A DNA stretch of 64,000 nucleotides from an uncultured Candidatus Saccharibacteria bacterium (GCA_964553015.1 CAZKJE010000002.1:14175-78174), one strand, 5' to 3'; counted from the first letter of the stretch, positions 2,507 to 51,273 are shown. A program made the numbers and translations. Notes: generated by a model from the letters alone, not told the origin.

Positions 2507-3076
2507 ATGATAAGAAATCCCCATCAGATAAAAATAGAATCTTTCTACGGAGAGAATAAGAGGATGCCGACGTATTCGGAAATGATGAAGCTCTTCGGCT
2601 ACAAATCCAAGAATGCGGTTTTTAAAGTCGTGGAGAAATTGATTGACGCAGGGCTCGTCGCCAAAGATCATCTCGGCCGGTTAGTACCCACACAATCTTT
2701 TGGCGAAGTTCCGATGCTTGGGCTGGTGACTGCCGGTTTGCCTGCAAGTGTGGAAGAAGAGCTCGCAGATACTGTGAGCTTGGACGAATTTTTAATAGAA
2801 AAGAAAGCTTTTACATATATGCTAGAGGTGGACGGGGATTCTATGATAGATGCGCACATAGAAAAGGGGGATATGGTTCTCGTCGAGAAGGCAAACCAGG
2901 CTAAAGATATGCAGATAGTCATCGCCGAAGTGGATGGCGAATTTACGATGAAATATTTTAGGCGTGATGGGAATAAATGTTGGCTCGAGCCGGCCAACAA
3001 AAACTACAAACCGATCTATCCGGAACATTCTTTAAATATAAATGCAGTGGTGAAAGCGGTGATTAGGAAATACTAA
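2507..3076 (+). CDS. lexA: LexA repressor (S24 peptidase)
   Basis: 189 aa. N-terminal winged-HTH region (MPTYSEMMKLFGYKSKNAVFKVVEKLIDAGLV), a GLVTAG linker, and a C-terminal S24 domain with the Ser (GDSM) and Lys (TMKYF) dyad context. Confidence 0.85.
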   Translation: MIRNPHQIKIESFYGENKRMPTYSEMMKLFGYKSKNAVFKVVEKLIDAGLVAKDHLGRLVPTQSFGEVPMLGLVTAGLPASVEEELADTVSLDEFLIEKKAFTYMLEVDGDSMIDAHIEKGDMVLVEKANQAKDMQIVIAEVDGEFTMKYFRRDGNKCWLEPANKNYKPIYPEHSLNINAVVKAVIRKY

Positions 3077-3439: not shown

Positions 3440-3530
3440 AATGTAAAAAAATTATTTTTGTAATTCTTTCGACCTTTTAACCCTTATTTTTGATACCTAT
3501 TCATTATATATCAAGGGTTTTTTAGCGCAA

Positions 3531-5057
3531 CTACCGGGCGTATTCCACAATTCTTGTCTCTCGGATCATAGTGACCTTGATTTCTCCCGGATATTTTAGT
3601 TCCTGCTCTATTTTTATAGCTATATCGCGTGCCATTATTTTAGCTTCGGCGTCAGATATCTTTTCCGGAGTTACAAATATGCGGATTTCGCGTCCGGCCT
3701 GCAGAGCATATGATTTTTCAACAGCAGGGAACTGGTTTACCAGAGCTTCGAGCTCCTGCAACCTCTTTAGGTAATTTTCAACAGAGTCTCGACGGGCTCC
3801 CGGACGGCCTCCGGATATCGCGTCTGCGGTCTGCACGATGATGGATTCAATAGTTTCGTATGGATAGTCCTCGTGGTGCGATTTCATTGCAGTCACGATG
3901 CGTTCGTCAGCGCCGAATTTCTGAAGGATACGCATGCCTATCTCCACATGCGTGCCCTGTACTTCGTGGTCGAGCGCTTTTCCGATGTCATGCACCAAGG
4001 CTCCAGCCTTGGCAATCTGTACATCGGCGCCGAGCTCTTCGGCAATCATGCCGGCAATGTGAGACATTTCCGTAGAGTGCTGTAGAACGTTCTGGCCATA
4101 GCTTGTTCGGAAATATAATCGGCCGATAATCGCTACGATGCGCGGATCAAAGTTAAATATTCCGCATTCATACACCGCCTGTTCTCCTTTTTCCTTAATT
4201 ATTTTATTTATATCTTCCTTCGCTTTTTCTACGAGCTCTTCAATTTTTGCCGGCTGAATGCGTCCGTCTAAGATTAGGTTCTCAAGCGCCAAGCGGGCTA
4301 CCTGTCTTCGGATAGGATCGAAACAGGAGATAACAATAGAGCCAGGAGTATCGTCCACGATGAGCTCCACTCCCGCTGCCCGTTCAAATGCGCGGATATT
4401 GCGGCCTTCTTTTCCGATAATTTTTCCTTTAATTTCATTGTTTGGAATAGAAACAACTGTCGTCATGAGTTCGGAAGCTGTACTCGCGGCTAAACGCTGA
4501 ATAGAAGTCGCCAGGATATCTTTTGCGTGCCTATCAAGCTTTTCCTCGTTACTATTTTCCAATTTCTGAATACGAATCATGATGTCTTCTTCATATTTTT
4601 TTTCTACATCTCGAAGAAGTTCTTCTTTGGCTTCGTTTTCTGTCAGCTCTGCGACTCTCTCCAGCTCTATTCTTTTTTCATCTTCTATTTTTAATATTTT
4701 TTCCTGTATTTTTTTAACCTCCTCAACTTTTAGCTTGATCACTTCGGCTTCCTTGTTTACTTCCACCTGCCGCGCGTCCAAGAACTCATCTTTTTTTATG
4801 AGTCTTTTTTCGGTTTCTTTCCATTCATCAGTCTTTCTCTTCTCTTCTTCTTTTAAGTTGCCGACCAGCTCTTCGGATTTTTTCTTGGCTTCATCCGTGA
4901 TCCTTTGCGCTTCTTCTTTCGCGCCGACCATCATCTGTTTTATGTCTATCTCAATAGACCTGCGTTTTCCGAGCGCGACCAAAAGGCGCAGATAGTATCC
5001 GACTATCACGCCCAAAAGGAGCACTCCGACTCCGACTAGAATTATTATTATGCTCAT
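3531..5057 (-). CDS. rny: Ribonuclease Y
   Basis: 508 aa. N-terminal TM anchor, K/E-rich coiled coil, KH domain (GKIIGKEGRNIR) and HD domain (VHDIGKA, SHHEDYP). Confidence 0.9.
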   Translation of the reverse strand: MSIIIILVGVGVLLLGVIVGYYLRLLVALGKRRSIEIDIKQMMVGAKEEAQRITDEAKKKSEELVGNLKEEEKRKTDEWKETEKRLIKKDEFLDARQVEVNKEAEVIKLKVEEVKKIQEKILKIEDEKRIELERVAELTENEAKEELLRDVEKKYEEDIMIRIQKLENSNEEKLDRHAKDILATSIQRLAASTASELMTTVVSIPNNEIKGKIIGKEGRNIRAFERAAGVELIVDDTPGSIVISCFDPIRRQVARLALENLILDGRIQPAKIEELVEKAKEDINKIIKEKGEQAVYECGIFNFDPRIVAIIGRLYFRTSYGQNVLQHSTEMSHIAGMIAEELGADVQIAKAGALVHDIGKALDHEVQGTHVEIGMRILQKFGADERIVTAMKSHHEDYPYETIESIIVQTADAISGGRPGARRDSVENYLKRLQELEALVNQFPAVEKSYALQAGREIRIFVTPEKISDAEAKIMARDIAIKIEQELKYPGEIKVTMIRETRIVEYAR

Positions 5058-5248
5058 AAGCCTGTGTCAGCTTACAAGAACAAACCACTATATTTTAGAT
5101 TTTTCCTGCCTGCATGCCAAAGATTTGCAAACTTTCTCTTATCTTTTCTTTTGAAAACTTCATAATATATGGGATATTCCTGTGAACCAATGTAAAATAA
5201 ATTTTTAAAATTCAACGTACATAGTATAACAGAAAGGATAAAATTAGT

Positions 5249-5854
5249 CTAGTTTTCCTGTTTTGACCCTGGAGTTTTGGATTTGGTGACTATTTCGTCT
5301 ATTATTCCGTACTTCTGCGCCTCTTGCGCATCCATGAAGAAGTCCCTCTCCACGTCTTTTTCAATCTGGGTGAGGGATTTGCCGGTATTTTTTGCCAAAA
5401 GTTTGTTTAAATTATCTCTGGTCTTTAAAATATGCTTTGCCGTGATTGCAATATCGGTGGCTTGGCCTTCCACTCCGCCCAAGGGCTGGTGGATCATGAT
5501 CTCGGCGTTCGGCAAAATATAGCGCTTGCCACGCTTACCGGAAGACATGATGATAGCGGCGCCTGAAGCAGCGAGGCCGACACAGAAGGTAGAAATATCC
5601 GGACGGACATGATTCATGGTGTCCACTATGGCCATAGTAGAAGTCACCGATCCGCCCGGAGAATTTATATAAAGATGAATATCTTTTTTAGCATCTTCGG
5701 ATTCTAGAAATAGAAGCTGGGCGATGACGATATTTGCGGTGTTGTCGTCAATCGGTCCGGCTAAAAAGACTATCCGCTCGCGCAAAAGGCGGGAATATAT
5801 GTCGTAAGCGCGTTCTCCAAATTGCGATTTTTCTATTACTGTTGGTATTAACAT
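5249..5854 (-). CDS. clpP: ATP-dependent Clp protease proteolytic subunit
   Basis: 201 aa. ClpP family throughout ([29 protein letters not shown]). Confidence 0.95.
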
Positions 5855-5893
5855 GTAAATATTATATTCTAATTTTTAACTTTTTCAAGCTTG

Positions 5894-5922
5894 TTGACAT
5901 AAACCTACTTTAAGTGTATAAT
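5894..5922 (+). promoter_or_regulatory. Consensus promoter for the small ORF at 5964
   Basis: TTGACA (5894..5899), 17 nt, TATAAT (5917..5922). Confidence 0.65.
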
Positions 5923-5963
5923 ACCAAACGAATAAAAATTGAACCAAAAGGAGGATTCCAATC

Positions 5964-6143
5964 ATGAAGTTTATTTTCTTGCAGAATACATCTGACGGGT
6001 GCAAGCCCATGTGGCTTACGCCCCCGTTTGATGCCCCGTCCGTAGAAAGAGCGGATCAGATCACCAAAGAGCGATACCTCCACGAGGGCGAGCTCTACAA
6101 AAAGGTTGAAAAAACCGAGACGATCGTGAGAGGAATCTGGTAG
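5964..6143 (+). CDS. Unlisted small ORF (59 aa), hypothetical
   Basis: ATG at 5964 is preceded by AAAGGAGG at proper spacing. It has a consensus promoter upstream and tandem terminators downstream. Translation: MKFIFLQNTSDGCKPMWLTPPFDAPSVERADQITKERYLHEGELYKKVEKTETIVRGIW. It is below the 60-aa cutoff of the ORF track. G+C and codon choice are visibly richer than in neighbours. Confidence 0.5.
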   Translation: MKFIFLQNTSDGCKPMWLTPPFDAPSVERADQITKERYLHEGELYKKVEKTETIVRGIW

Positions 6144-6161
6144 AGTAGCACAACAACATCG

Positions 6162-6252
6162 CTCGCTCTGGGCAAGAAGACTCGTCTTCTGCTTCGGGCG
6201 AGTTTTCTTTTTACCTCCTTGCCCTGCTTAGCGGGGCTTGCTTCTCTTTTTT
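6162..6252 (+). terminator. Two tandem intrinsic terminators
   Basis: Long hairpin 6162..6202 followed by TTTTCTTTTT. Second hairpin GCCCTGC-TTA-GCGGGGC (6221..6237) followed by a T-rich tail. Confidence 0.6.
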
Positions 6253-37950: not shown

Positions 37951-37978
37951 TAATTTATTTGCAATTCATTACGATTTT

Positions 37979-38323
37979 TTATCTTACAGTTTCCAGAATT
38001 CTTTTGAAAGTTGCGGGATGATGTTCTGCAAAGTCGGCCATAATCTTTCTATCAAGCATTATATTTTTCTTTTTGAGGGCATCAATAAGTTTGGAATAAG
38101 TCATGCCGAGCTCTCTACTTCCAGCATTTATTTTTATATTCCAAAGCTTTCTGTTGTGAGATTTTTTATCCTTTCTATGCGCGAAAGAGTAATTTCCTGC
38201 GTGCAGAAGCGCATCTTTTGCCTGGCGCTCTTTCTTGCTTCTGCCGTGGCGCATTCCCTTTGTCTGCTTCAATACGCTTCTCCTTCTCTTTAACGCATGT
38301 ACCCCCTTTTTTACTCTGGTCAT
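37979..38323 (-). CDS. rplT: 50S ribosomal protein L20
   Basis: 114 aa. MTRVKKGVHALKRRR N-terminus and L20 family sequence throughout. Confidence 0.95.
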   Translation of the reverse strand: MTRVKKGVHALKRRRSVLKQTKGMRHGRSKKERQAKDALLHAGNYSFAHRKDKKSHNRKLWNIKINAGSRELGMTYSKLIDALKKKNIMLDRKIMADFAEHHPATFKRILETVR

Positions 38324-38365
38324 AAAATCAATTACGAATTATAGATTATTAATTACAAATTTAAA

Positions 38366-38560
38366 TTAACTGAAAGGCAGCAAGTAACTCTTTGGCTTGT
38401 TTTTGATCACGAAGTTTACTCCCTTTCGCCCTGCAAGCTGTGAATTTCGCGACTGTTTTGCATTAAAATGGTTAAAGCCAGCCTTGCGAGAAAGAACCTT
38501 GCCGTTTTTGGTAAGCTTTAATCTTTTGCTGTATGACTTGTTTGTCTTCATTCCTTTCAT
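38366..38560 (-). CDS. rpmI: 50S ribosomal protein L35
   Basis: 64 aa basic protein lying between infC and rplT. KTNKSYSKRLKLTKNGKV. Confidence 0.9.
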   Translation of the reverse strand: MKGMKTNKSYSKRLKLTKNGKVLSRKAGFNHFNAKQSRNSQLAGRKGVNFVIKNKPKSYLLPFS

Positions 38561-38566
38561 AAAATT

Positions 38567-39070
38567 TTATTTTTTCTCTATTGTTATGGTTAAACCCTTC
38601 GGACCCTTTTTATAACTGTCTGAAACTTTGTAATCTTCGGTAATTAAATGCAATACTCTATCTAAGCGCTCCCTTAAAAATTTTTCATCCATATACTTCG
38701 CGCGTCCCGCGAGGAAAAGTTCTACTTTGATCCTATGGCCTTCCTTGATCCACCTGGATGCCGTTTTGGCTTTTAGTTCGAGGTCGTGATCTCCGGTGCC
38801 TATTTTTATCTGAATGGATTTCGTCTCGGTCTTGTTTGCTCCGGCTTTGGCCTTTTTTAATTTCTTTGCGGCTTCGTACTGATATTTGCCAAAATCCATT
38901 ATCTTGGCAACCGGCGGATTGCCGGTAGGACCAATCTCAATTAAGTCTAAACCCTTACTTTGCGCTAATTCCAAAGCATCTCTTATGCTTAAAACACCTA
39001 AATTTTTATTTTCACTATCCAGAACCCGAAGTTCCTTGGCCCGTATTTGGTTGTTTATTCGTTCGCGCAA
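38567..39070 (-). CDS. infC: Translation initiation factor IF-3
   Basis: 167 aa. INNQIRAKELRVLD N-domain and a C-domain. The start codon on the DNA is TTG. Confidence 0.9.
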   Translation of the reverse strand: MRERINNQIRAKELRVLDSENKNLGVLSIRDALELAQSKGLDLIEIGPTGNPPVAKIMDFGKYQYEAAKKLKKAKAGANKTETKSIQIKIGTGDHDLELKAKTASRWIKEGHRIKVELFLAGRAKYMDEKFLRERLDRVLHLITEDYKVSDSYKKGPKGLTITIEKK

Positions 39071-39145
39071 TTGATATTAGTAGCAAAATAGACTTATGAA
39101 ACTACAAGAAGGATAATAGCGTAACTAAACCATAAAGTCAATTTG

Positions 39146-39535
39146 TGGAGATGGGGGAAATTGAATCCCCGTGCAGAAGGTTTTTGCAAAGAAGTCTACA
39201 TGCGTAGCGCGCTTTTTGTTTTAAATTAAAAAATTATGAAACGCGCCAAATATTTTTTAACCGAGTTCTTTTGTTTTGCGAGAGCGTCAGAACAGGCGTT
39301 CAAGCTATCCCGATAATGTTATGCCTCGTCTTATATATCGGAAGTCTATAAGAGAGACACCACCTCAGGCTTACGCGAAAGATGGAGCGAAAGCGAGCGC
39401 ATTACCGAAGTAAGGCGAACGCATTGCTGTGAAAGCTGATTTTGCAATTAGCTGTTGAACGAATTTTTACGAGATTACGTTCATTCTCGGCATGCATCAA
39501 TAACAAATGGCCAACTGTCTATGCCTTGCATCCCC
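39146..39535 (-). ncRNA. ssrA: tmRNA (SsrA)
   Basis: The 5' GGGGATG pairs with the 3' CATCTCC, including the G3:U pair. T-arm GGGGA-TTCAATT-TCCCC, discriminator A, and CCA not encoded. Immediately downstream of smpB. The candidate tag frame ends ...GNALAFAPSFA-TAA, but the resume codon was not determined. Confidence 0.85.
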
Positions 39536-39546
39536 ATATTTACTTT

Positions 39547-39993
39547 TCAACGTCCTTTAAAATCTCGGCGAATCTCGCGATCAGTGTCACGCTTTTTTAG
39601 AGTTTCGCGTTTATCAAATTTTTTCTTGCCTTTCACCAGGGCAATTTCCAATTTGATTTTCCTGCCTTTATTATACACTGAAATCGGCACTATTGTCAAA
39701 CTTTTATTCTTCTCGCTGCCTTGTAGCTCATTAATTTCTTTTTTGGTCAGCAAAAGTTTCCTATTGCGCAGAGGATCATAATCTTTTGGCGCATTTTTTG
39801 CCTGATATGGAGGTATGTTGGCATTGATCAGGTATGCTTCGCCGCCGCGTATAATTACAAAAGCCCCCTCGAGCGACATCTGACCCGTTCGTACAGCTTT
39901 TACTTCTGTTCCCAAAAGCTCAATACCGGTTTCGTGCTTTTCTAGGAATTCATAATTGAATCGCGCTTTGCGGTTTTCTGTATAACTAGCCAT
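39547..39993 (-). CDS. smpB: SsrA-binding protein SmpB
   Basis: 148 aa. NRKARFNYEF N-terminus and a basic C-terminal tail. Confidence 0.95.
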   Translation of the reverse strand: MASYTENRKARFNYEFLEKHETGIELLGTEVKAVRTGQMSLEGAFVIIRGGEAYLINANIPPYQAKNAPKDYDPLRNRKLLLTKKEINELQGSEKNKSLTIVPISVYNKGRKIKLEIALVKGKKKFDKRETLKKRDTDREIRRDFKGR

Positions 39994-40064
39994 AGCTTTA
40001 TCTTAACATAACTTTTCTTTATTTTATGATGACTATGATTCTATGTGCTTAATTGATAGTAAAT

Positions 40065-40092
40065 TTGACTCAAATTTTCTAAAGTGTATAAT
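40065..40092 (+). promoter_or_regulatory. Near-consensus promoter for the 40130 gene
   Basis: TTGACT, 16 nt, TATAAT, with TG upstream of the -10 box. Confidence 0.55.
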
Positions 40093-40129
40093 CTAGGTAT
40101 TATTTTTATAATTAAATCTTGAAAAAACT

Positions 40130-40642
40130 ATGAAAAATATAGAGAACGCGGGGCGTCTTTCCGAGGAAAAAGCTCAAAAGGAAGCCAAAGCAATTCAAGG
40201 TATGTCAGAGTTTAGGTCTTACGAGGAAGGCTACAAGAATCCAACAGCAGAACATTATGAAAAATCCTCAAAACATTTGGATAATCTAAAAGGGATAAGT
40301 TCTAAAGTTGCAGAGCTTTTTATAGAAGCAGCCGGACTAGGAAAGGATTTGAGAGATGAAATGGGTCCTGAAACACATAGGATATTTGAAATAGCCCAAA
40401 GAGATATTGTCCAACGCCTCAGATTAGAGGGTCTTTTTCTAAGATTGGGTAGTGAAGATCCAGAAGAAGAAAAAGAGAATATGGATTATATTCTTTCCAG
40501 ATGGGACAATGAGATTCGTTCAGATGAACGCATTAAGGATGTTTTCTTAGGGAAAGAGGAATTACTTAATAGGACAATAGAGTTTACTAAAAAGCACACC
40601 TTTCAACTTCTTGCTGGTATTAAGATAGAGATAGGAGAGTAA
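40130..40642 (+). CDS. Hypothetical cytoplasmic protein
   Basis: 170 aa. Helical and charged, with no recognised family. Confidence 0.5.
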   Translation: MKNIENAGRLSEEKAQKEAKAIQGMSEFRSYEEGYKNPTAEHYEKSSKHLDNLKGISSKVAELFIEAAGLGKDLRDEMGPETHRIFEIAQRDIVQRLRLEGLFLRLGSEDPEEEKENMDYILSRWDNEIRSDERIKDVFLGKEELLNRTIEFTKKHTFQLLAGIKIEIGE

Positions 40643-40713
40643 TATAAAAATTTTATAATTAAATCTCGCTTTTCGGTGTAATGAGACATAACTTTATATT
40701 AACATAGATTTTT

Positions 40714-40852
40714 ATTCCCCTCTTGAGGGGTGGCTCGCGTGCAAGACGGGGTGGATAATTTACCTCACCCTGCTGCCCTCTCCTGTAAAGGGGAGGGGAA
40801 AATTCATCCACCTCCCTCCGACCCATGTCGGAGTACTCCTCAAGAGGAGAAT
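40714..40852. mobile_element. MITE-like GC-rich element with terminal inverted repeats
   Basis: The left end ATTCCCCTCTTGAGGGGT and the reverse complement of the right end (ATTCTCCTCTTGAGGAGT) match at 16 of 18 positions. T-runs flank the element. The interior holds further hairpins (CCCTCTCC-TGTAAA-GGGGAGGG and CTCCGAC-CCAT-GTCGGAG). It is non-coding. Confidence 0.5.
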
Positions 40853-40926
40853 TTTTTACTCATATACTACTCTAATCCTATAAATAAGGGTTTTTTGACT
40901 TTGCTAGCAACAAAGTGTAAAAATGC

Positions 40927-40954
40927 TTGACAAAAAATGTAGATATGCTATGAT
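40927..40954 (+). promoter_or_regulatory. Promoter of the candidate structured RNA
   Basis: TTGACA, 16 nt, TATGAT, with TGc immediately upstream of the -10 box. Confidence 0.5.
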
Positions 40955-40960
40955 ATAAGC

Positions 40961-41250
40961 ATCTCATAGATTTTATTTGATTTAATATGAGGTCAAGAGA
41001 TTGTTTCGTATAGTCTCTTGCATATCCCTAAATCAAATGTAGTTTCTCAAAAACGATTAGCGAATTGAGAGATTTTCGCTAAAAACGCTTGAGAAATGAA
41101 GAGCTGAAATCTCTCTGGGTCTGGAGCGCTCGGGTTACCTTTAGCTCTTTGATCCATCTGTTGGTAAAAACCCGAACATCATCGCCGTCGGTTCGAAACA
41201 ACCCTCGGCACCCCACCCAAAGCTTCGGCCGCGGGTGGGTTTTTATTTTT
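40961..41250 (+). ncRNA. Candidate structured non-coding RNA of unknown class (about 290 nt)
   Basis: It has its own promoter. It contains three long perfect-stem hairpins (40975..41038, 41043..41096, 41099..41149). It ends in the intrinsic terminator CCCACCC...GGGTGGG plus TTTTTATTTTT (41212..41250). The only ORF across it is the implausible N-extension of ftsH. Confidence 0.35.
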
Positions 41251-41286
41251 ATACTGAATTTTTTATTTCACATTTTGGGTTTTTTG

Positions 41287-41295
41287 TGCTATTAT
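41287..41295 (+). promoter_or_regulatory. Extended -10 (TGcTATTAT) 6 nt upstream of the ftsH ATG
   Basis: The hexamer ends at 41295 and the ATG is at 41302. No SD is present. Confidence 0.5.
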
Positions 41296-41301
41296 CTCAA
41301 A

Positions 41302-43230
41302 ATGGATTTAAATTTTCTTAACAATAAAACTGGCGACAAAGGGCGAAAGAAACTTCCGAAGCCGACGAAGTTCAGTGGGAATATTTTAGGCGCGATAATT
41401 TTTTTCATGCTCATCACTGCGCTTTACTTGGTGGTAGCAGGAGACCAAAAAACGGTTCCAGAAATTCCAATTTCCGACCTGGCGCAAAGCGTATCTGCGG
41501 GAGAGGTAAAAAATATTTTAGTTTCCGGAGACAAGCTCACCATCACGTACAAAAACGATCAAGTTAAGACATCCAAGAAAGAAGTGGGCTCGGCGCTGTC
41601 GCAGACACTTTTTAATTATGGGGTGCCGCCGGAAGCACTTGCGCAGACAGAAATAGAAATAAAAAACGAAAGTGGATTTGCGTACTGGCTCGTAAATATT
41701 CTGCCGTTTCTTCTGCCGGTAATTTTTATTCTGTTGTTTTTCTGGTATTTATCACGCCAGGTAAAAGGCGCAGGCATGCAGGCGTTTACTTTCGGACAAT
41801 CCAAGGCCCGCATCACAGATCCGAATGATAAAAATAATAAAGTTACTTTCAAAGACGTGGCCGGAGCCAAAGAAGCGAAGGAAGAATTGAAAGAGATTGT
41901 AGACTTTTTGAAAAGTCCGAAAAAATTTCTGGATATTGGCGCAAGGATTCCAAAAGGTGTAATGCTGACAGGAGCCCCGGGTACAGGAAAGACGCTGCTC
42001 GCTCGCGCTGTAGCAGGCGAGGCCTCCGTGCCGTTCTTTCATTTATCCGGCAGCGAATTCGTGGAAATGTTCGTTGGTGTCGGGGCTTCGCGTGTGCGTG
42101 ACCTATTTAAAATGGCTAAAAAAGCTGCACCGGCCATCATATTCGTGGATGAAATAGACGCTATCGGGCGCACGAGAGGGGGAGGCTTTGGCGGCGGGAA
42201 TGATGAACGCGAGCAAACCTTGAACCAGATTTTGGTGGAGATGGACGGCTTTGAACCGAACGATAAAGTGATAGTCATGGCGGCTACAAACAGGCCGGAC
42301 GTCCTCGATCCGGCGCTCATTCGCCCGGGACGTTTTGATAGAAAAGTAATGATAGATCTTCCGGATCGCGCTGACCGCGAAGAAATTTTAAAAATTCACG
42401 CTGTTAAAAAACCTCTCGCCGAAGATATAAATTTGAAATTAATTGCCGAACGTACACCTGGTTTTTCTGGCGCCGACCTGTATTCGCTCATGAACGAAGG
42501 TGCGATACTCGCCGCACGCGAGAACCGCAAGAAAGTTTTTCAATTTGATCTCATACGCGCGATAGAAAAAGTAATGCTCGGTCCTGAGAGGAAGAGCCAT
42601 TTGCTTTCCAAAAAAGAAAAAGAAATTACTGCGTACCATGAAGCGGGTCATGCGATCGTCGCATCAGTTTTACCTCACGCAGATCCCGTTCATAAAGTTT
42701 CTATCATCTCCCGCGGAAACGCCGGAGGATACACTTTGAAGCTTCCGCTTGAAGAAAGGCGATTGCAATCTAAAAAAGAATTTATAGATGACATTGCGAT
42801 GTCGCTCGGAGGATATGTGGCCGAGCAGATGATGTTCGGAGATATCACGACTGGTCCGTCAAGCGATTTGCAGGCAGCAACAAACATTGCGCGCGCCATG
42901 GTGACGCGCTGGGGCATGTCGGACATTATCGGACCGATAGCCTTGAACGATTCTCCCGGCCGTTCTATGTATGGAGGAGAAACAGTAGAAAAAGAATTTT
43001 CCGAAAGTGTTTCTACTAAAGTAGATGCTGAAGTTTCAAGAATAATTAGTGATGGGCTAAAGTCTGCGCAAATCGTAATTACCGAAAACAAAAAAGCCTT
43101 TGAGGCTATAGCACAAAAACTCATAGAAGTTGAAACCATAGAACAGGAGGAATATGAAAAAATTCTCATAGCGCACGGAATTATCTTAAAAAAGAAAGAA
43201 GTCATAGCTCCACCGGAAGGTACAAAGTAA
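41302..43230 (+). CDS. ftsH: ATP-dependent zinc metalloprotease FtsH
   Basis: Start moved to ATG 41302 (MDLNFLNN...). Two TM segments, Walker [12 protein letters not shown], the SRH region and the HEAGHA zinc site. Confidence 0.95.
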
Positions 43231-43323
43231 AAACCAAAGCGCTTTTCTGACTGTTTATATTATATGCGAACTATGGTATGCTATACTAGTACTAACTATT
43301 TGTAAGTTCATAAATAAAAAGAA

Positions 43324-43998
43324 ATGGCGAGAAAACAAGATAAACAAAGCGTTTTGGCTATGCGCAAGAGAGGAATGAGCTACAGCCAGATCAAAGGGAA
43401 AATAAAAATAAGCAAAAGCACTTTGAGTGTCTGGCTTAAAGATTTACCACTCGATGAAAAACGGATAAGAGAATTAAGAGACAATAGCCCTATTCGTATT
43501 GAAAAATTCAGAAATACAATGCGAGCAAAAAAAGAGATGAGACTTTATGAGGTATATAAAAAAGTCGCAAATGATATTTGTGATCTCTCAAAAAGAGATT
43601 TATTTTTAACAGGCTTGTTCTTATATTGGGGAGAAGGCACGAAATCACAAAATTCTTTAGTTGCCCTCACAAATACAAATCCAGCCATGGTTAAGTTTTT
43701 CATACAATGGCTAAAATTGTTTGGAGTAAAAAGCAAAGATTTGAAAATTAAACTACATTTATACTCCGATATGAAAATTAAAGAAAGTCTTGATTTTTGG
43801 TCAAAAGAGCTTAATATTCCGATAAGCCAGTTTTATAAGCCGTATGTTAAGAAAAATACTCTCAAATCTATCTCGTATAAAAATGGCTTTGGAAAAGGAA
43901 CATGTAGTGTTATATTTGGGAGTAGAGATCTTTGGGAATATATAACAATGGGATTGAAATATATTTCTGAAATTAGTAATGAAAATTTCCGCCCCTAG
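43324..43998 (+). CDS. HTH plus LAGLIDADG-like (homing-endonuclease-like) protein
   Basis: 224 aa. N-terminal resolvase-type HTH (RGMSYSQIKGKIKISKSTLSVWLK). A single LAGLIDADG-like motif (LTGLFLYWGEGTK). The last 10 nt, including the TAG stop, lie inside the tRNA gene. Confidence 0.45.
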   Translation: MARKQDKQSVLAMRKRGMSYSQIKGKIKISKSTLSVWLKDLPLDEKRIRELRDNSPIRIEKFRNTMRAKKEMRLYEVYKKVANDICDLSKRDLFLTGLFLYWGEGTKSQNSLVALTNTNPAMVKFFIQWLKLFGVKSKDLKIKLHLYSDMKIKESLDFWSKELNIPISQFYKPYVKKNTLKSISYKNGFGKGTCSVIFGSRDLWEYITMGLKYISEISNENFRP

Positions 43999-44061
43999 CT
44001 CAGTTGGTAGAGCAATCCGCTTATACCGGATCGGTCCTTGGTTCGAGTCCAAGGGGGCGGA
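43989..44061 (+). tRNA. tRNA-Ile with anticodon UAU
   Basis: Cloverleaf read by hand: acceptor CCGCCCC/GGGGCGG, D-arm GCTC-AGTTGGTA-GAGC, anticodon arm ATCCG-CTTATAC-CGGAT, variable loop CGGTC, T-arm CTTGG-TTCGAGT-CCAAG, discriminator A. CCA is not encoded. Confidence 0.8.
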
Positions 44062-44063
44062 CA

Positions 44064-44624
44064 ATGAAAGATAATTTGAACGAAAAATTAATTTCTGTTC
44101 CCCAACCACCCGTATTCCATACCTCAAGCCGTTTTTTATACGACGAATGGGTGCGCCTGAGTAAGCGTCTGGAAATAGAAGAGTTAAACGAAGAGGAGCG
44201 TGTTATAATAGAACAAAAGAGATCTGCGCTATTTAAAGAATATGAAGTTGCGTCTAATCGTGAGCAAGCCGAACCCGAAGCCATAGGCTTAGAATTTCTA
44301 GAAAACTTGAAATACGCTATTAAACAGAAAGACAAAGCTTTGTTACGAAAAACAATCCTTATGATTCAAGAGTTTGTTAATCGCCCTAACTTTTATAAAG
44401 ATTTAGATTTTATCAGATTTGCTGATGATGAATTAGATAAGATTTTAAATAATCGAATTGCCGCTATTATTGTCGGATCAGGTACTTATGGTCAAAGAAT
44501 TTTGATTTCTTCCAGCCGCTTGCGCATGAGCGGAGATAGACACGGACAGGAGTATAGAAACCGTTTTGCTAAACTTTTCGGTCTCAAATTCGATCCTAAC
44601 ATTGATTTAAGTATTGAATTTTAA
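44064..44624 (+). CDS. Hypothetical protein
   Basis: Start moved to ATG 44064, 3 nt after the tRNA, because the track start lies inside the tRNA. 186 aa with no recognised family. Confidence 0.5.
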   Translation: MKDNLNEKLISVPQPPVFHTSSRFLYDEWVRLSKRLEIEELNEEERVIIEQKRSALFKEYEVASNREQAEPEAIGLEFLENLKYAIKQKDKALLRKTILMIQEFVNRPNFYKDLDFIRFADDELDKILNNRIAAIIVGSGTYGQRILISSSRLRMSGDRHGQEYRNRFAKLFGLKFDPNIDLSIEF

Positions 44625-50460: not shown

Positions 50461-50547
50461 AATATAATTATAATTTTACGCTTCAATAATTATCTTGTAA
50501 AGATAAAATGTTTATAACTTAATCAATTTTTCATTTCTATCTTTTTC

Positions 50548-50556
50548 TGGTATATT
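50548..50556 (+). promoter_or_regulatory. Extended -10 (TGgTATATT) 6 nt upstream of the tmk ATG
   Basis: The hexamer ends at 50556 and the ATG is at 50563. No SD is present. Confidence 0.5.
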
Positions 50557-50562
50557 TCCTGT

Positions 50563-51273
50563 ATGGCAAAAAAGTCAAAACGAGGTAAACTCATAGTCAT
50601 AGATGGCACGGACGGCAGCGGAAAAGCGACACAGATAGGCCTCCTCATAAAACATCTAAAAAAAGACGGCAAAAAAGTAAAGCTTGTCGATTTTCCGGAA
50701 TACTATTCAAACTTTTTTGGCGCATTCATAGGGCATTGTCTTTCCGAGCAATATTATAATTTCGTAAAAGTGCATCCCAAAATTGCTTCCGTGCTTTACG
50801 CCGCAGACCGCTTTGAATCAAAAGATAAAATACAAAAATGGCTAGCAGAGGGAAACATCGTAATTGCAAACAGGTACGCGAGCGCGAATCAGATCCATCA
50901 GGGCGGAAAGATTGCTAATACACAAAAAAGAGAAAATTTTTTAAAATGGCTTGCCGAGATGGAGTACGAGGTCTTTAAAATTCCAAGGCCGGATGCAGTT
51001 TTTTATTTAAGCGTGCCGATCCCGATAGTTATGAAGCTGATAAAAGAAAGAAATAAGGAAAGTAGGCGCGCCTACCTCGGCAAGAAAAAAGATGTGGTGG
51101 AAAAAGATAAAAATTATATGGAAAATTCCAGAAAAAGCGCACTCTGGCTCGCCAAGACCCAGAGGGGCTGGATAAAAATTGAATGCCTAAAAAATAGCGA
51201 ACTAGAAAGCCGTGAAGTTATTCACGATAAGATTTATGAAAAAGTTAAAAATATTTTGCTTGCCCGTCCATAG
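50563..51273 (+). CDS. tmk: Thymidylate kinase
   Basis: 236 aa. P-loop IVIDGTDGSGKATQ and a DRF/DRY-type motif (AADRFES). Confidence 0.9.
   Translation: MAKKSKRGKLIVIDGTDGSGKATQIGLLIKHLKKDGKKVKLVDFPEYYSNFFGAFIGHCLSEQYYNFVKVHPKIASVLYAADRFESKDKIQKWLAEGNIVIANRYASANQIHQGGKIANTQKRENFLKWLAEMEYEVFKIPRPDAVFYLSVPIPIVMKLIKERNKESRRAYLGKKKDVVEKDKNYMENSRKSALWLAKTQRGWIKIECLKNSELESREVIHDKIYEKVKNILLARP

Follow-up and report, generated by a model that had tools for sequence, protein, structure and literature searches.

Small RNA (sRNA) genes borne by genomic islands and prophages typically possess a sigma-70-type promoter of their own, contain no ORF, form stem-loops and end in a terminator with a U-run, and they lie on inserted DNA that is specific to a strain or lineage and situated by a conserved gene. 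The candidate described here, a predicted non-coding transcript of about 285-290 nt upstream of ftsH (40961-41250, plus strand, of the window, i.e. of the whole 64-kb stretch of DNA that was analysed), resembles these genes in such features. It differs from them in being long (~285 nt) and almost fully base-paired, and neither a seed region nor a target was found for it. To our knowledge very few sRNAs have been described in CPR/Patescibacteria, and we know of no chaperone context for sRNAs in CPR bacteria. These organisms have tiny genomes with very little non-coding DNA, and a strongly promoted, structured unit of 285 nt is therefore unusual among them.

Other well-known systems invite comparison as well. 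Riboswitch and attenuator leaders (e.g. the T-box) share with the candidate the order of promoter, structured region, terminator and gene, and likewise display competing helices. However, in the present locus the downstream gene has its own promoter behind the terminator, the competing helices are clear of the terminator, no Rfam match exists, and relatives show no conserved counterpart of the element in front of ftsH. Intergenic repeats such as REP/BIME, Correia, BOX and MITE-like elements are, like the candidate, composed of adjacent imperfect palindromes, possibly with short direct repeats at the edges, but the candidate is single-copy in everything searched and is equipped with a first-rate promoter and a terminator, which are normally absent from such repeats. 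6S RNA and Ms1 are highly structured, independently transcribed RNAs of 200-300 nt, and the same is predicted for the candidate; in contrast to them it has neither a rod-like closing stem nor a central bubble, and it is not conserved in close relatives.

The reading that we tentatively prefer, with somewhat less than even confidence, is that the unit represents a stand-alone, lineage-specific candidate sRNA gene of ~285 nt on 1.25 kb of accessory DNA at the junction between smpB and the ftsH promoter. The more solid result of this analysis is a negative one: the unit is not a conserved regulator of ftsH.

The insertion upstream of ftsH

The genome from which the window derives is a member of the Nomurabacteria/Paceibacterota (CPR), and its FtsH is 85-88% identical to that of Nomurabacteria MAGs and 91-92% identical to that of three metagenomic relatives. 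The loci used for comparison comprised 80 ftsH loci of GTDB species and 80 from JGI metagenomes, and the two closest relatives, L163 and L164, were added via a protein database and compared with the window by blastn. L163 is the closest relative with DNA at hand (FtsH 92% identical), and L164 has an FtsH of 91% identity. Across 152 loci, ftsH is preceded by a median of 64 nt of non-coding DNA, and in the relatives the ftsH promoter is directly abutted by smpB or tmRNA.

L163 is collinear with the window, with rplT, rpmI, infC, tmRNA and smpB (minus strand) followed by ftsH and a 224-aa ORF (plus strand). The left flank of the junction (37977-40016 of the window) aligns with 1392-3450 of L163 and the right flank (41265-44064) with 3464-6240, each at 81% nucleotide identity. 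As both flanks align, the 1,248 bp at 40017-41264 replace 13 nt found at the same position in L163; the right boundary of this lineage-specific insertion is identical in the comparison with L164. The insertion holds ORF170, a 5' fragment of smpB, a structured element (element 1) and the candidate RNA, and in other genomes the slot upstream of ftsH is occupied by unrelated cargo. The tie to ftsH that headed the preliminary description proved to be positional only: the unit is part of the 1,248-bp insertion and is absent from the related loci examined.

ORF170 (40130-40642, plus strand) encodes a hypothetical protein and has its own promoter (TTGACT-16-TATAAT, 40065-40092). It has a single homologue, with 57% identity, located beside adk/map and having no such RNA nearby, and comparisons with Pfam, PHROG and PADLOC yielded no significant match (DUF1048, E 0.064, is below the cut-off). 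A linkage of the RNA to ORF170 was considered and rejected. Next to ORF170 lies a degenerate second copy of the 5' end and upstream region of smpB (40647-40712, minus strand), whose identity is 72% with 39949-40016 of the window, 77% with L010 and 70% with L163. The presence of this smpB fragment on the insertion implies a donor in which smpB (minus strand), element 1, this RNA and ftsH follow one another.

Element 1 (40714-40852, plus strand; -70.4 kcal/mol, z -5.5) is a second, very stable structured element, GC-rich and closed by an 18-nt inverted repeat that is followed by a T-run; it is probably the terminator or a 3' structure of ORF170. Its modules ACCTCACC, CCCTCTCC-loop-GGAGAGGG and GGTGGATRA occur also in short hairpins of L018 (1040-1110, minus strand) and L126 (2105-2160), which are located between the smpB stop and the 5' end of tmRNA, and a hairpin similar to element 1 is present at 2205-2255 of the window. 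GC-rich hairpins of this kind may form a small family in Nomurabacteria.

The surroundings of the RNA contain two short direct repeats. The 10-nt GAATTTTTTA (40849-58 and 41256-65) brackets promoter and RNA, is AT-rich and may be due to chance, and CATAGATTTT is found at 40703-12 and 40965-74. No terminal inverted repeats were detected on the RNA unit.

Promoter, fold and terminator of the RNA unit

The unit opens with a sigma-70-type promoter with an extended -10 (40927-40954, plus strand; TTGACA-16 nt-TGcTATGAT). A base-by-base check assigned TTGACA to 40927-40932, TG to 40946-40947 and TATGAT to 40949-40954, so that the near-consensus promoter reported earlier is verified in every base. In a promoter scan it scores 11/12, plus the TG. 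With quality defined as 6/6 matches at -35, a spacer of 16-18, TGn and at least 5/6 matches at -10, this promoter is the only one of its kind in the 64-kb window (128 kb, both strands); the chance expectation is 0.023 per shuffle, such promoters having been seen in 7 of 300 shuffles. Transcription is predicted to start near A40961. The -10 of the unit has the form TGCTATnAT, which recurs in the conserved ftsH promoter and in promoters of L049 and L055, and in its extended form it is the -10 consensus of the clade.

As judged by eye, the plus-strand ORFs inside the unit have only 8, 1, 3 and 13 codons, and tblastx of the unit against related ftsH loci gave no match, which agrees with the earlier statement that a credible ORF is lacking. 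A TTG-initiated frame from 41089 (713 aa) is merely the frame that stays open upstream of the conserved ftsH ATG. The 291 nt of the plus strand fold at -91.9 kcal/mol, compared with -68.0 +/- 5.1 kcal/mol in 200 dinucleotide shuffles (z -4.72), none of which folded as well, and this z is the most extreme among the 17 intergenic regions of the window. The opposite strand reaches -85.4 kcal/mol (z -3.96), the plus strand being the better one. It is confirmed that promoter and fold of the unit are real and more than chance would provide.

Hairpin 1 (40975-41038, plus strand as all structures below; -20.5 kcal/mol) is an interrupted helix of 22-26 bp. Base checks established an outer helix ATTTGATTTA/TAAATCAAAT (40975-84/41029-38), a middle helix ATATG/CATAT (40985-89/41021-25) and an inner helix CAAGAGA/TCTCTTG (40994-41000/41014-20), with pair probabilities of 0.94-1.0 for the outer and inner helices and ~0.6 for the middle one. 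The 22 bp originally proposed hold base by base, can be extended to 26 bp and are robust in the ensemble. Hairpin 2 (41043-41096; -15.8 kcal/mol) consists of two 8-bp helices around a 6x6 internal loop, the outer being TTTCTCAA/TTGAGAAA (41043-50/41089-96) and the inner TTAGCGAA/TTCGCTAA (41057-64/41075-82), both base-checked, and it carries the apical loop TTGAGAGATT (also given as UUGAGAGAUU). Both helices are perfect, as first drawn, and the hairpin is robust in the ensemble with pair probabilities of 0.84-0.99. The two strands of its internal loop, 5'-AAACGA and 5'-AAACGC, had also been correctly noted: they read alike within arms that are otherwise inverted, a pattern that would not be expected from simple palindrome decay.

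Alternative pairings involve the same region. A pairing of the hairpin 2 loop with the 5' arm, suggested previously, is possible with 7 Watson-Crick pairs and one G-U. A stronger option, absent from the preliminary description, is a 14-nt helix of 41067-80 with 41102-15 (86% complementary), which includes 9 contiguous Watson-Crick pairs (GAGAGAUUU/AAAUCUCUC). This helix uses the loop and the inner 3' arm of hairpin 2, so that it and the inner helix of hairpin 2 cannot form together; when forced, it yields -89.6 versus -91.9 kcal/mol, a cost of +2.3 kcal/mol. Constrained folding thus bears out the idea of mutually exclusive helices, in the sense that near-isoenergetic alternative pairings exist. 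The helix is the only strong alternative in the unit and lies ~100 nt upstream of the terminator, which is not the arrangement of an antiterminator.

The middle region (41099-41156) is poorly defined, and the third hairpin proposed there competes with other pairings. Its helix AAGAGCT/AGCTCTT (41099-105/41143-49) exists and has -17.0 kcal/mol in isolation, but in the full-length ensemble the pair probability of the outer helix is a weak 0.24 and the GAGCGCTC palindrome is unused (0.0). The least structured stretch of the unit is found at ~41150-41183. Downstream of it, a further hairpin, GCCG-UC-GGUU-CGAAAC-AACC-CU-CGGC (41184-41209; -10.6 kcal/mol), is robust with pair probabilities of 0.81-1.0 and had not been listed before; it contains the T-loop-like sequence GGUUCGAAAC, and comparison with the 3' end of tmRNA revealed no similarity.

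The unit ends in an intrinsic terminator (41212-41250; -16.2 kcal/mol) that combines a 7-bp GC stem, CCCACCC/GGGTGGG (41212-18/41233-39, base-checked), with an inner C(UUCG)G and a T-run at 41240-50 (TTTTTATTTTT; also given as UUUUUAUUUUU). All three components had been recognized at the outset and are robust in the ensemble (pair probability 0.74-0.93), and L007 has a UUCG-capped terminator of like style. The stretch thus shows what is expected of an sRNA gene, namely a promoter of its own and an intrinsic terminator that bracket a non-coding sequence.

Behind the end of the terminator, 16 nt separate the unit from the -35 of the ftsH promoter (TTCACA-17 nt-TGCTATTAT, 41267-41295, plus strand), which lies outside the RNA and sets its limit on the right. 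The start of ftsH is the ATG at 41302, 7 nt after the -10. This promoter is conserved nearly base for base in L001-L018, L163 and L164, again with the ATG 7 nt after the -10, and ftsH is therefore leaderless in this clade. The leaderless promoter formerly claimed for ftsH is therewith confirmed, and since it is located 3' of the terminator and retained by relatives devoid of the RNA, the latter forms a unit of its own and is no ftsH leader. In the window, the -10 ends 7 nt before the start of several leaderless-looking genes: ftsH (41302; site 41267-41304), the gene at 50563 (50528-50565) and, as judged by eye, infC (~39070-39135, minus strand).

Searches for relatives and rival explanations

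Similarity to 40700-41262 was found in none of the 162 ftsH loci L001-L162 (~1 Mb) by blastn, nhmmer, tblastx or covariance models. The latter were single-sequence models of the 5' half (R1) and the 3' half (R2), run over these loci and the window, and they recovered nothing beyond the UUCG-capped terminator of L007, a generic one, and a poor match in L018. The unit has no blastn similarity in L163 and L164, exact-pattern scans of metagenome and viral contigs gave 0 hits, blastn against phages and plasmids gave no match, and neither the 64-kb window nor ~1 Mb of related DNA contains a second copy of any hairpin. A search for targets found 12-nt complementarities at the chance rate, none of them convincing, and the output of RNAduplex target prediction consisted mostly of artefacts; a 23-nt match (78%) of the unit to the start region of ORF170 is AT-rich.

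With Rfam 15 at gathering thresholds there was no match in the candidate, and the window yielded only tmRNA (39143-39535, minus strand, 119.6 bits) and one tRNA (43989-44061). At E<=10, a search of 40600-41350 still matched no family in the candidate and returned two opposite-strand noise hits at the terminator end of the unit (41211-41329 and 41209-41266, E 1.9-7.8), with scores far below threshold. The initial failure to recognize RNase P, SRP, 6S or any riboswitch in the RNA is hence reproduced by covariance search. BLAST of the candidate against the tmRNA of the window recovered only 6-7-nt words, and a tmRNA relic or attachment-site remnant was rejected because of the lack of similarity to this tmRNA or its 3' end. 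The candidate likewise shows neither a tRNA-like domain built from its 5' and 3' ends nor a tag reading frame. A retron ncRNA was considered as well, and no reverse-transcriptase gene is adjacent, the neighbours being ORF170 and ftsH.

Elsewhere in the window, a stretch of ~1.86 kb (22677-24533) contains no ORF >73 aa, has 35-49% GC and bears promoter-like sites on both strands. Its first 269 nt gave z -6.3 in a rough estimate with 25 shuffles, whereas 22677-22960 gave only z -3.0 with 200 shuffles, and Rfam at gathering thresholds showed no family match in 22677-24533.

The case for a stand-alone sRNA gene is built on the unique promoter, the terminator, the fold (z -4.72), the non-coding nature of the unit, its separation from ftsH and its position on an accessory insertion. 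If this reading is correct, RNA polymerase would produce a discrete RNA insulated from ftsH, in which the two stable 5' hairpins and the 3' hairpins might serve as structural or protective modules. The RNA would act in trans through protein binding or through base-pairing via ~41150-41183, and the hairpin 2 loop and 41102-41115 could engage in a pseudoknot-like contact or a two-state switch; the unit is probably a recent acquisition or construction that arose together with ORF170 or beside it. On the other hand, homologues were not found in any collection searched, and the long helices of the preliminary description are perfect Watson-Crick inverted repeats, with a minus strand that itself reaches z -3.96. 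Perfect inverted repeats fit young palindromic or inserted DNA equally well, and the patchwork of short duplications and a pseudogene fragment around the unit makes a fortuitous promoter beside junk possible. The unit may instead be a functionless relic, i.e. a 1.25-kb scar of recombination or mobile DNA rich in young palindromes (MITE/REP-like or products of template switching), with a chance promoter, a structure that is not under selection and a transcript that, if made, is a by-product; we regard this as a serious though doubtful possibility. A relic would fit the absence of the unit from all 164 related loci and the mere 13 nt in the closest collinear relative, the degenerate smpB 5' fragment, the short direct repeats GAATTTTTTA and CATAGATTTT at the edges, the perfectly inverted helix arms that let both strands fold well, and the neighbouring slot being an insertion hot spot in relatives (e.g. 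the TIR-flanked GIY-YIG element in L009 and L106). It accounts less readily for a promoter that is the best in the window and very unlikely to have arisen by chance, for a proper terminator at a sensible distance from it, for the lack of a second hairpin copy in the window and ~1 Mb of related DNA, and for a hairpin 2 loop that reads 5'-AAACGN-3' on both strands, unlike simple palindrome decay. From its sequence, the candidate would at present count as an orphan that is not yet separable from a transcribed insertion scar.

The candidate sRNA gene could also be the first member of a new class of structured ncRNA that is mobile among CPR genomes on small accessory cassettes, which we consider unlikely. 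The architecture of such a class would comprise two long 5' hairpins, the pseudo-symmetric AAACGN/AAACGN loop, a 9-bp contact or switch between a loop and downstream sequence and the T-loop-like hairpin, and it would function in trans, e.g. by sequestering a protein or in defence or inter-element competition. Still more improbable is that the unit regulates ftsH in cis as a leader (riboswitch, attenuator or thermosensor), with conditional read-through of the terminator adding to ftsH expression. Promoter, structured region and terminator do immediately precede ftsH and share its strand, and there are alternative helices of near-equal energy; however, behind the terminator ftsH is served by a conserved leaderless promoter of its own, an mRNA produced by read-through would carry a long leader lacking a Shine-Dalgarno before the ATG, the element is missing from 164 related loci, the alternative helix is clear of the terminator with no antiterminator pairing >5 bp seen by eye, and riboswitch and T-box models give no match, not even at E<=10. 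The sequence comparisons already largely refute this reading. An origin as a highly diverged duplicate or relic of a known housekeeping RNA (tmRNA, 6S, RNase P or SRP RNA) is very hard to credit: the position matches that of tmRNA in relatives with smpB-tmRNA-ftsH on one strand, and the GGUUCGAAAC hairpin recalls a T-arm, but the true tmRNA is located at 39143-39535, shares only 6-7-nt words with the candidate and has a dissimilar 3' end, and the candidate is matchless at E<=10, has no 6S-like long closing stem or central bubble, and lacks, as judged by eye, the CR-I/CR-IV motifs of RNase P and the domain IV motif of SRP. An equally slight chance is given to a small protein or leader peptide such as the 13 codons from UUG 41001 to UAG 41040. 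By eye, GAGG (40990-93) is indeed placed 7 nt before the UUG within hairpin 1, yet the frame spans only 13 codons, is hidden within the most stable helix and is without a homologue, and the strong promoters here drive a leaderless ATG 7 nt after the -10, which is missing at this promoter. If the candidate sRNA is expressed, it would mean that reduced episymbiont genomes still gain RNA genes on accessory DNA.

The junction between smpB-tmRNA and ftsH

A by-product of the comparison concerns the junction itself. The smpB-tmRNA module between infC (minus strand) and ftsH (plus strand), at 39143-39993 of the window, differs in orientation from one close relative to another. The window, L163, L005, L007 and L010 carry it on the minus strand, and L164, the P0123 contig, L001-L003, L006 and L016 carry it on the plus strand. 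As the flanks are fixed and the orientation varies, the module has been flipped in place repeatedly. The outward-facing infC promoter (minus strand, ~39085-39135; TTGACT-17-cGCTATTAT, with a TTG start 7 nt later) resembles that of ftsH, and the two promoters could act as inverted repeats for the flip. The smpB-tmRNA/ftsH junction in Nomurabacteria is shown to be a hot spot of rearrangement and insertion. L164 has an rve-family integrase/transposase gene (92-973) right upstream of smpB, which is further evidence for a recombination-prone junction.

In L009, an insertion at 2690-3000 contains an 84-aa GIY-YIG nuclease gene (Pfam E 2.9e-18) flanked by 12-nt inverted repeats CCCGTTAGAGAT/ATCTCTAACGGG; it is situated right after the ATGGAT that opens ftsH and is followed by a restored start, ATGAAT. 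At the identical site, L106 (~2900-3000) possesses a miniature of ~95 nt whose ends are those of the L009 insertion. The two represent a small mobile element with the first ftsH codons as its target.

A more distant relative within Paceibacteria, L031, has ~815 nt of non-coding DNA (2092-2907) between smpB (minus strand) and ftsH (plus strand), with three promoter-hairpin-terminator units, the last of which measures ~210 nt (fold z -4.1), a (GGTTA)n repeat and two TTATCCAC boxes. In position and layout the three units are analogues of the RNA unit of the window, but they are not homologous to it; homology between the promoters of the candidate and of the third L031 unit was rejected, their resemblance being the promoter consensus of the clade (also in L049, L055 and ftsH). 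The TTATCCAC boxes prompted us to consider a replication origin, which was dismissed because the window has no DnaA-box cluster in this slot and its GC skew follows the gene strand.

On the other side of ftsH and directly behind it, the 224-aa ORF (43324-44062) has an N-terminal HTH_23 match (E 3e-4, below the cut-off) and a weak LAGLIDADG_3 match. It is conserved at the same position in L163 and L164, and a tRNA-Ile (anticodon TAT, 43989-44062) overlaps the 3' end of this ORF.
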